Under the pieces are notes generated by a model. It did no database searches and had not been told where the DNA came from. It saw nothing but the letters and a program-made list of their open reading frames with translations. This document shows, piece by piece, positions 13,074 to 13,370 of a stretch of DNA of 64,000 bases; position 1 is the stretch's first letter; each line of letters opens with the position of its first letter. Origin of the DNA: Escherichia coli O157:H7 (GTDB lineage: Bacteria > Pseudomonadota > Gammaproteobacteria > Enterobacterales > Enterobacteriaceae); assembly GCF_013167455.1 (NCBI RefSeq), contig NZ_CP038328.1. One strand, 5' to 3'. A program made the position numbers and the translations under genes.

Positions 13074-13150
13074 TGGTTGCGGGGGCCGGATTTGAACCGA
13101 CGACCTTCGGGTTATGAGCCCGACGAGCTACCAGGCTGCTCCACCCCGCG
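13074..13150 (-). tRNA. metV: Initiator tRNA-fMet (CAU), copy 3 of tandem array
   Basis: Reverse complement reads CGCGGGGTGGAGCAGCCTGGTAGCTCGTCGGGCTCATAACCCGAAGGTCGTCGGTTCAAATCCGGCCCCCGCAACCA; 77 nt with CCA end; symbol assigned from K-12 order metZ-metW-metV. Confidence 0.9.
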
Positions 13151-13183
13151 TCACCGTACTGCTTTTACTTCATCAAATTTGAT

Positions 13184-13260
13184 TGGTTGCGGGGGCCGGA
13201 TTTGAACCGACGACCTTCGGGTTATGAGCCCGACGAGCTACCAGGCTGCTCCACCCCGCG
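13184..13260 (-). tRNA. metW: Initiator tRNA-fMet (CAU), copy 2
   Basis: Identical 77-nt sequence to the other two copies, 110-bp periodicity. Confidence 0.9.
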
Positions 13261-13293
13261 TCACCGTACTGCTTTACTTCATCAAATTTTAAT

Positions 13294-13370
13294 TGGTTGC
13301 GGGGGCCGGATTTGAACCGACGACCTTCGGGTTATGAGCCCGACGAGCTACCAGGCTGCTCCACCCCGCG
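13294..13370 (-). tRNA. metZ: Initiator tRNA-fMet (CAU), copy 1 (promoter-proximal)
   Basis: Identical 77-nt sequence; first copy downstream of the promoter on the minus strand. Confidence 0.9.

Follow-up and report, generated by a model that had tools for sequence, protein, structure and literature searches.

We find that the three tandem tRNA genes carried on the minus strand of a 64,000-nucleotide stretch of Escherichia coli O157:H7 DNA, referred to here as the window, are almost certainly the metZ-metW-metV operon of E. coli, residing here in the O157:H7 chromosome; this reading is the best explanation of the observations as a whole. The locus belongs with the known metZWV operon as a true member, not just as a look-alike, and all of the sequence-level defining features that we tested are present. 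The biology of metZWV is textbook material and already known, and our survey of complete E. coli genomes adds to it a modest population view: three copies of the gene are kept in about nine out of ten genomes.

Three identical initiator tRNA genes at metZWV

Analysis of the window with ARAGORN yielded exactly three tRNA genes, all of them tRNA-Met with the anticodon CAT and all on the minus strand. Each copy matched the Rfam tRNA family (RF00005) over its full length with 61.4 bits, compared to a gathering score of 29. The genes, as called by both ARAGORN and Rfam, are:

13294..13370, minus strand: metZ, the promoter-proximal tRNA-fMet1 gene, 77 nt, with CCA encoded
13184..13260, minus strand: metW, the second tRNA-fMet1 gene
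13074..13150, minus strand: metV, the third tRNA-fMet1 gene

A script comparison found all three 77-mers to be identical to one another, and for three identical sequences of this length chance is not an issue. Tandem Repeats Finder (TRF) reported a single array at 13070-13372, with a period of 110, 2.8 copies, 97% matches and a score of 583. A preliminary description of this DNA had claimed three identical 77-nt copies in a 110-bp tandem repeat, separated by two near-identical 33-nt spacers, and it was borne out on each of these points: ARAGORN placed the genes at the same coordinates, and both spacers are 33 nt long, read on the plus strand exactly as had been quoted and lie three edits apart. 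The strand had been omitted from that description. Both the genes and their transcript are on the minus strand, and the spacers quoted are the reverse complement of the RNA.

In RNA sense, the shared sequence of metZ, metW and metV is CGCGGGGUGGAGCAGCCUGGUAGCUCGUCGGGCUCAUAACCCGAAGGUCGUCGGUUCAAAUCCGGCCCCCGCAACCA, which ARAGORN, Rfam and a minimum-free-energy fold all place in a canonical cloverleaf with a CAU anticodon. C1 stands opposite A72, without a Watson-Crick 1:72 pair, and the first acceptor pair is accordingly non-standard in the Rfam alignment. The anticodon stem (UCGGG/CCCGA) contains three consecutive G:C pairs, G29-G30-G31:C39-C40-C41, and the D stem (GAGC/GCUC) yields the purine11:pyrimidine24 pair A11:U24, which is an initiator mark. 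The variable loop of all three copies carries G46, and the 3' CCA end is encoded. Every initiator mark tested was thus present, and by its sequence metZ/metW/metV is the bacterial initiator tRNA, tRNA-fMet, that the preliminary description had named. G46 is the tRNA-fMet1 form derived from metZWV, K-12 metY having A46 instead (PMC3017606), and both formylation by Fmt and IF2-dependent binding to the P site have been established for the identical E. coli sequence (PMC3017606, PMC7949028).

Around the array, 1,297 bp match E. coli O157:H7 strains at 100% identity and K-12 at 99.1%, and comparison with O157:H7 PV15-279 revealed 14 substitutions across the first 58,970 bases of the window. In the identical O157:H7 region, the RefSeq gene order is recD, argA, amiC (plus strand), three tRNA-Met genes (minus strand), mltA (plus strand), tcdA and csdE/csdA. 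K-12 has the same layout of amiC, three tRNA genes and mltA, with spacers identical to those of the window. The two flanking genes are:

11747..13000, plus strand: amiC, convergent flanking gene (RefSeq annotation of the identical O157:H7 region)
13579..14676, plus strand: mltA, divergent flanking gene (RefSeq annotation; start codon read from the sequence)

The primers used by Kapoor et al. (PMC3017606) to knock out metZWV in K-12 map exactly to 13406..13371 (minus strand) and 13037..13073 (plus strand), and the flanking primers from the same study map to 13389..13371 and 13059..13073, so that four published metZWV primers match exactly at the flanks of the array. Because of this synteny, the sequence identity and the exact primer matches, we conclude that the locus is metZWV, the arrangement to which the array had originally been likened.

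We weighed two rival readings of these data. The name given to the genes by ARAGORN and RefSeq is simply "tRNA-Met", and from the anticodon by itself an initiator cannot be told from an elongator tRNA-Met or from a tRNA-Ile2, in which CAU is modified to lysidine. Nevertheless, the genes have the C1xA72 mismatch, A11:U24 and three consecutive G:C pairs in the anticodon stem, and their locus is the metZWV of the literature, with exact matches to its published primers. There is hardly any chance that the genes are elongator or Ile2 genes, and the initiator sequence features led us to rule out both identities. It is similarly improbable in the extreme that the triplication in the window is an assembly or duplication artefact. 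Short tandem repeats are indeed sometimes misassembled, and other assemblies show between 1 and 5 copies; however, exactly three units are found at this locus in ∼4,932 of 5,426 complete genomes, including K-12 and many O157:H7 genomes that are 100% identical to the window. Moreover, since the two spacers differ from each other, the three-unit path in the window is unambiguous.

Several further features were noted in the window. The intergenic region between mltA and tcdA (14677-14915) contains a match to the Rfam sRNA ES036 (CssrF) at 14798-14840 on the plus strand (46.5 bits; gathering score, 37.6). This region measures ∼238 nt in O157:H7 and K-12 and ∼76 nt in EC-16-526, 961 and 400660, a difference in length which implies that a small element is present or absent depending on the strain. 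The sRNA genes gcvB (17856-18061, minus strand, 199 bits) and csrB (36242-36601, plus strand, 382.6 bits) were found at their expected positions near gcvA and syd, respectively. In the near-identical record of O157:H7 PV15-279, the gene gudX (window ∼40011-41351, plus strand) is listed as a pseudogene interrupted by an internal stop. The sole indel relative to that strain, at ∼58942-58970, makes the window ∼124 nt shorter and falls into the ∼1.2-kb ygcE-queE interval, which is without an annotated gene; at 58-60.2 kb, TRF detected no tandem repeat that would explain it.

Proposed promoter, terminator and spacers of the operon

The transcription signals proposed for the operon are as follows:

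13384..13421, minus strand: promoter region upstream of metZ (read from the sequence)
13421..13414, minus strand: A8 tract (read from the sequence)
13411..13406, minus strand: putative -35 hexamer TTGCAT (assigned by eye), followed by a 16-nt spacer
13389..13384, minus strand: putative -10 hexamer TATAGT (assigned by eye)
13038..13067, minus strand: intrinsic terminator, hairpin GAACACCCTAACGGGTGTTT followed by a T run (terminator scan)

The -10 hexamer is followed by a GCGC discriminator and then by a leader, of at most ∼13 nt, that runs up to the mature 5' end. The exact assignment of the two hexamers is tentative, and the site is plausible as a promoter. It agrees with the published position of promoter-down suppressor mutations, which lie in or just upstream of the metZWV -10 box and lower the level of tRNA-fMet (PMC3017606). 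A consensus promoter scan called no sigma-70 site upstream of metZ, because the -35 sequence TTGCAT matches at only 3 of 6 positions. This miss is a threshold effect and no evidence for the absence of a promoter.

The GAACACCCTAACGGGTGTTT hairpin was the only terminator-like site found downstream of metV, and it reappeared when the precursor was folded. Folding of the whole 356-nt precursor (z = -0.69 relative to shuffled sequences) revealed nothing beyond this terminator. A match to the Rfam family AaHKsRNA82 at 13000-13076 (24.4 bits versus a gathering score of 51.4; E = 0.94) was rejected as a chance hit on terminator hairpins.

Transcription from a single promoter upstream of metZ would generate a polycistronic minus-strand precursor comprising the three tRNA-fMet1 genes and the two 33-nt spacers and ending at the intrinsic terminator just past metV. 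tRNA-processing nucleases would cut this precursor into three copies of the initiator tRNA, each of which would receive methionine, be formylated and enter the ribosomal P site directly. For operon transcription, the dosage effect and the binding of sRNAs and Hfq by the spacers, we draw on the literature. The three genes have been described as forming one operon, with levels of tRNA-fMet that correspond to gene copy number (PMC3017606), and a precursor of ∼500 nt containing all three genes has been reported (PMC10710024). Deletion of the operon leads to cold sensitivity and enables non-initiator tRNAs to initiate translation (literature including PMC3017606). The triplication is a gene-dosage device, in which metZWV supplies most of the cellular initiator tRNA and the tRNA level tracks copy number.

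The two internal transcribed spacers, delimited by script and identical to those of K-12, are:

13261..13293, minus strand: metZ-metW spacer (S1), in RNA sense ATTAAAATTTGATGAAGTAAAGCAGTACGGTGA
13151..13183, minus strand: metW-metV spacer (S2), in RNA sense ATCAAATTTGATGAAGTAAAAGCAGTACGGTGA

Their three edits consist of one substitution and two compensating 1-nt indels. An (ARN)3 run, AAG-UAA-AAG, occurs in the metW-metV spacer only, since a single-A indel destroys it in the metZ-metW spacer. The metZWV spacers are more than inert linkers: they have been found to co-purify with the sRNAs RybB and MicF (PMC4583644), and a weak, low-affinity site for the distal face of Hfq has been reported in the metW-metV spacer (PMC10710024), that is, in the same spacer that carries the (ARN)3 run.

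Copy number in E. coli and other bacteria

Four types of query were run against 5,426 complete genomes of E. coli. Coverage alone proved unusable for counting units, since the search joins off-diagonal pieces, and E-value cut-offs were set to force full-length matches. The results of the array queries were:

Junction query (the spacer with 30 nt of tRNA on either side): 10,308 matches in 5,194 genomes, between 1 and 5 in each
tRNA-only query: 21,162 places in 5,425 genomes, median 4 and range 1-8 per genome
Four-unit query, E-value cut-off admitting no match below ∼240 nt: 4,999 genomes with three units or more, 67 of them covered in full
Four-unit query, full-length matches only: 93 places in 67 genomes, 41 with four units and 26 with five

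The 21,162 tRNA-fMet copies are consistent with one metY gene plus the arrays, most genomes having four initiator genes altogether (median 4). From these numbers we derived the following distribution:

3 units: ∼4,932 genomes (90.9%)
2 units: ∼195 genomes (3.6%)
1 or fewer units: ∼232 genomes (4.3%)
4 or more units: 67 genomes (1.2%)

Copy number at the locus thus varies across strains, with three units strongly the norm. In the following variant arrays, spacers are given in transcript order:

AS19-RrmA-: 1 unit, no spacer
EC-16-526: 2 units, S1
400660: 4 units, S1, S1, S2 variant
961: 5 units, S1, S2', S1, S2'
AR_0137: 5 units, 34/33/34/33-nt tRNA spacing, the same as in 961

These spacer orders fit unequal crossover between tRNA copies offset by one or two units. 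With units that repeat directly every 110 bp and are perfectly identical over 77 bp, whole units could be gained or lost through misaligned homologous recombination or replication slippage, a mechanism that we infer from its end products rather than from direct observation. The array had initially been called a perfect substrate for copy-number change. The occurrence of 1-, 2-, 4- and 5-copy arrays with crossover-type spacer orders upholds the substance of this statement; its wording is too strong, given that ∼91% of the genomes keep exactly three units and that many of the apparent losses are probably assembly artefacts.

In 1,964 of the 5,425 genomes of E. coli, the match to the window broke off within 1-9 bp of the 3' end of metV (window positions 13065-13073), with foreign DNA beyond this breakpoint in place of amiC. 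This island DNA carries tssB/tssC (type VI secretion) in EC-16-526 and genes for MalY/PatB, KpsF/GutQ and a phosphoglycerate dehydrogenase in 961 and AR_0137. It is the island "downstream of metV" already known from CFT073 and strain W (PMC3032704). At the 3' end of metV, the O157:H7 window is free of any island.

The expansions to four and five units are real and inherited, though rare. Strain HS has four units in NC_009800.1, a Sanger-era sequence from 2007, as well as in two later independent assemblies. Some 26 clinical isolates, spread over a dozen accession series, have a five-unit array in common (99.0% identity over a span of 409 nt), and its carriers include the ST617-typed strains AR_0114, four MRSN isolates and 675SK2 (typing from PMC6392093).

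Single-unit arrays present a different picture. Queries comprising one unit with 40-nt flanks identified 109 genomes with a K-12-type flank and 94 with an island-type flank. More than half of the island-type one-unit genomes among the matches listed belong to the AVS accession series, another genome of which has three units. The K-12-type list is rich in the WP, GF and TUM series and includes J53, MC1061, O104:H4 2011C-3493 and O157:H7 Xuzhou21; a second J53 assembly and other O157:H7 genomes have three units. Because of this clustering by project and the conflicts between assemblies of the same strain or serotype, one-copy genomes cannot be counted as biological deletions, and we rejected an interpretation in which the 232 genomes lacking a junction had been reduced to one copy by natural deletion. 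Many of the one-unit calls probably reflect collapse of the 110-bp tandem repeat by the assembler; in a short-read graph, shortest-path resolution of the 77-bp repeat would give exactly one unit.

Outside E. coli, tandem arrays of 2-4 copies are spread over the Enterobacterales. An exact-pattern scan (tRNA 3' end, 20-50 nt, tRNA 5' end) of species-representative genomes returned 104 stretches, with two units in 44, three in 54 and four in 3, and with spacers of 25-76 nt that differed between genera. Arrays were present in Escherichia (two units in E. albertii), Salmonella (two units, spacers of 28-29 nt), Citrobacter, Enterobacter, Klebsiella and Kluyvera, in Pectobacterium, Dickeya, Yersinia, Serratia, Edwardsiella, Xenorhabdus and Tatumella (four units), and in a small number of gammaproteobacteria that are not enteric, among them Marinobacter, Ferrimonas and Bacterioplanes. 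This tandem arrangement is old and widespread, and its number of units varies from species to species.

These observations bear on two further alternatives. The view that all copy-number variation in E. coli is technical, with the array biologically fixed at three, draws on the one-copy calls, namely, their clustering in the AVS, WP, GF and TUM projects, the one and three copies in different J53 assemblies and the single copy in O157:H7 Xuzhou21. Such a view is very hard to reconcile with the four copies of HS in three independent assemblies or with the identical 5-copy array in isolates from many groups, including ST617; moreover, related species carry 2, 3 or 4 copies, and amplification has been selected experimentally in Salmonella (PMC11721125). 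We consider it very unlikely. The other alternative holds that the spacers are themselves a selected product, serving as sponges for RybB and MicF or as Hfq sites, and that the array is kept partly for spacer dosage. The identity of the spacers between O157:H7 and K-12, their co-purification with both sRNAs and the weak Hfq binding of the one spacer with an (ARN)3 run would all be in line with this idea. However, spacer length and sequence vary widely between genera, and the Hfq binding was described as low-affinity. To our knowledge, spacer loss has no known phenotype, which we also count against a selected role. Taken together, this role appears possible but doubtful.

Significance and comparison with known systems

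Arrays probably collapsed by assemblers are of practical concern to users of "complete" assemblies: numbers of tRNA genes derived from such collapsed records would be wrong, which matters, for instance, for tRNA adaptation indices. The natural alleles, with four copies in HS and five in the ST617 group, offer material for testing laboratory findings on initiator dosage, growth rate and initiation fidelity. According to a summary of Samhita et al. (2014), loss of initiator tRNA gene copies from E. coli is a disadvantage in rich medium and an advantage in poor medium. One could go further and propose that the dosage of initiator tRNA genes varies among wild E. coli as a heritable polymorphism specific to lineages, with the 4- and 5-copy alleles having been fixed by raised fitness. 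On our analysis this proposal is unlikely, although the expanded alleles of the commensal HS and of the multidrug-resistant ST617 group might speed initiation or offset the cost of resistance, as the amplification selected in the laboratory does in Salmonella. If it were true, every further unit would bring with it another sRNA-binding spacer.

Among known systems, the 3'ETS-leuZ of glyW-cysT-leuZ, an sRNA sponge, is likewise a spacer RNA transcribed from a tRNA operon, with Hfq-dependent sRNAs as its partners, similar to the metZWV spacers that pulled down RybB and MicF; in contrast, the regulatory role of the metZWV spacers is much less established and their Hfq binding is weak. The fourth initiator tRNA gene, metY, encodes an initiator tRNA of the same family, but it is a single gene at another locus, upstream of nusA-infB and outside the window, and its K-12 version has A46 (PMC3017606), whereas G46 is found here. 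The metZ-metW locus of Salmonella enterica is also a tandem initiator array in which amplification changes copy number with an effect on fitness: according to the passage in PMC11721125 that cites Nilsson (2006), this amplification compensates for the cost of fmt and folD resistance mutations. It differs in having two units, with 28-29-nt spacers in the subspecies sampled, and in that its amplification was selected in the laboratory. The closest relative is metZWV of K-12 (63.5 min), from which the window copy, belonging to O157:H7, is distinguished by a few flanking single-nucleotide polymorphisms (99.1% identity over 1,297 bp) and with which it shares its genes, their order, the 77-nt sequence, the spacers, the putative promoter, the terminator and the neighbors amiC and mltA.
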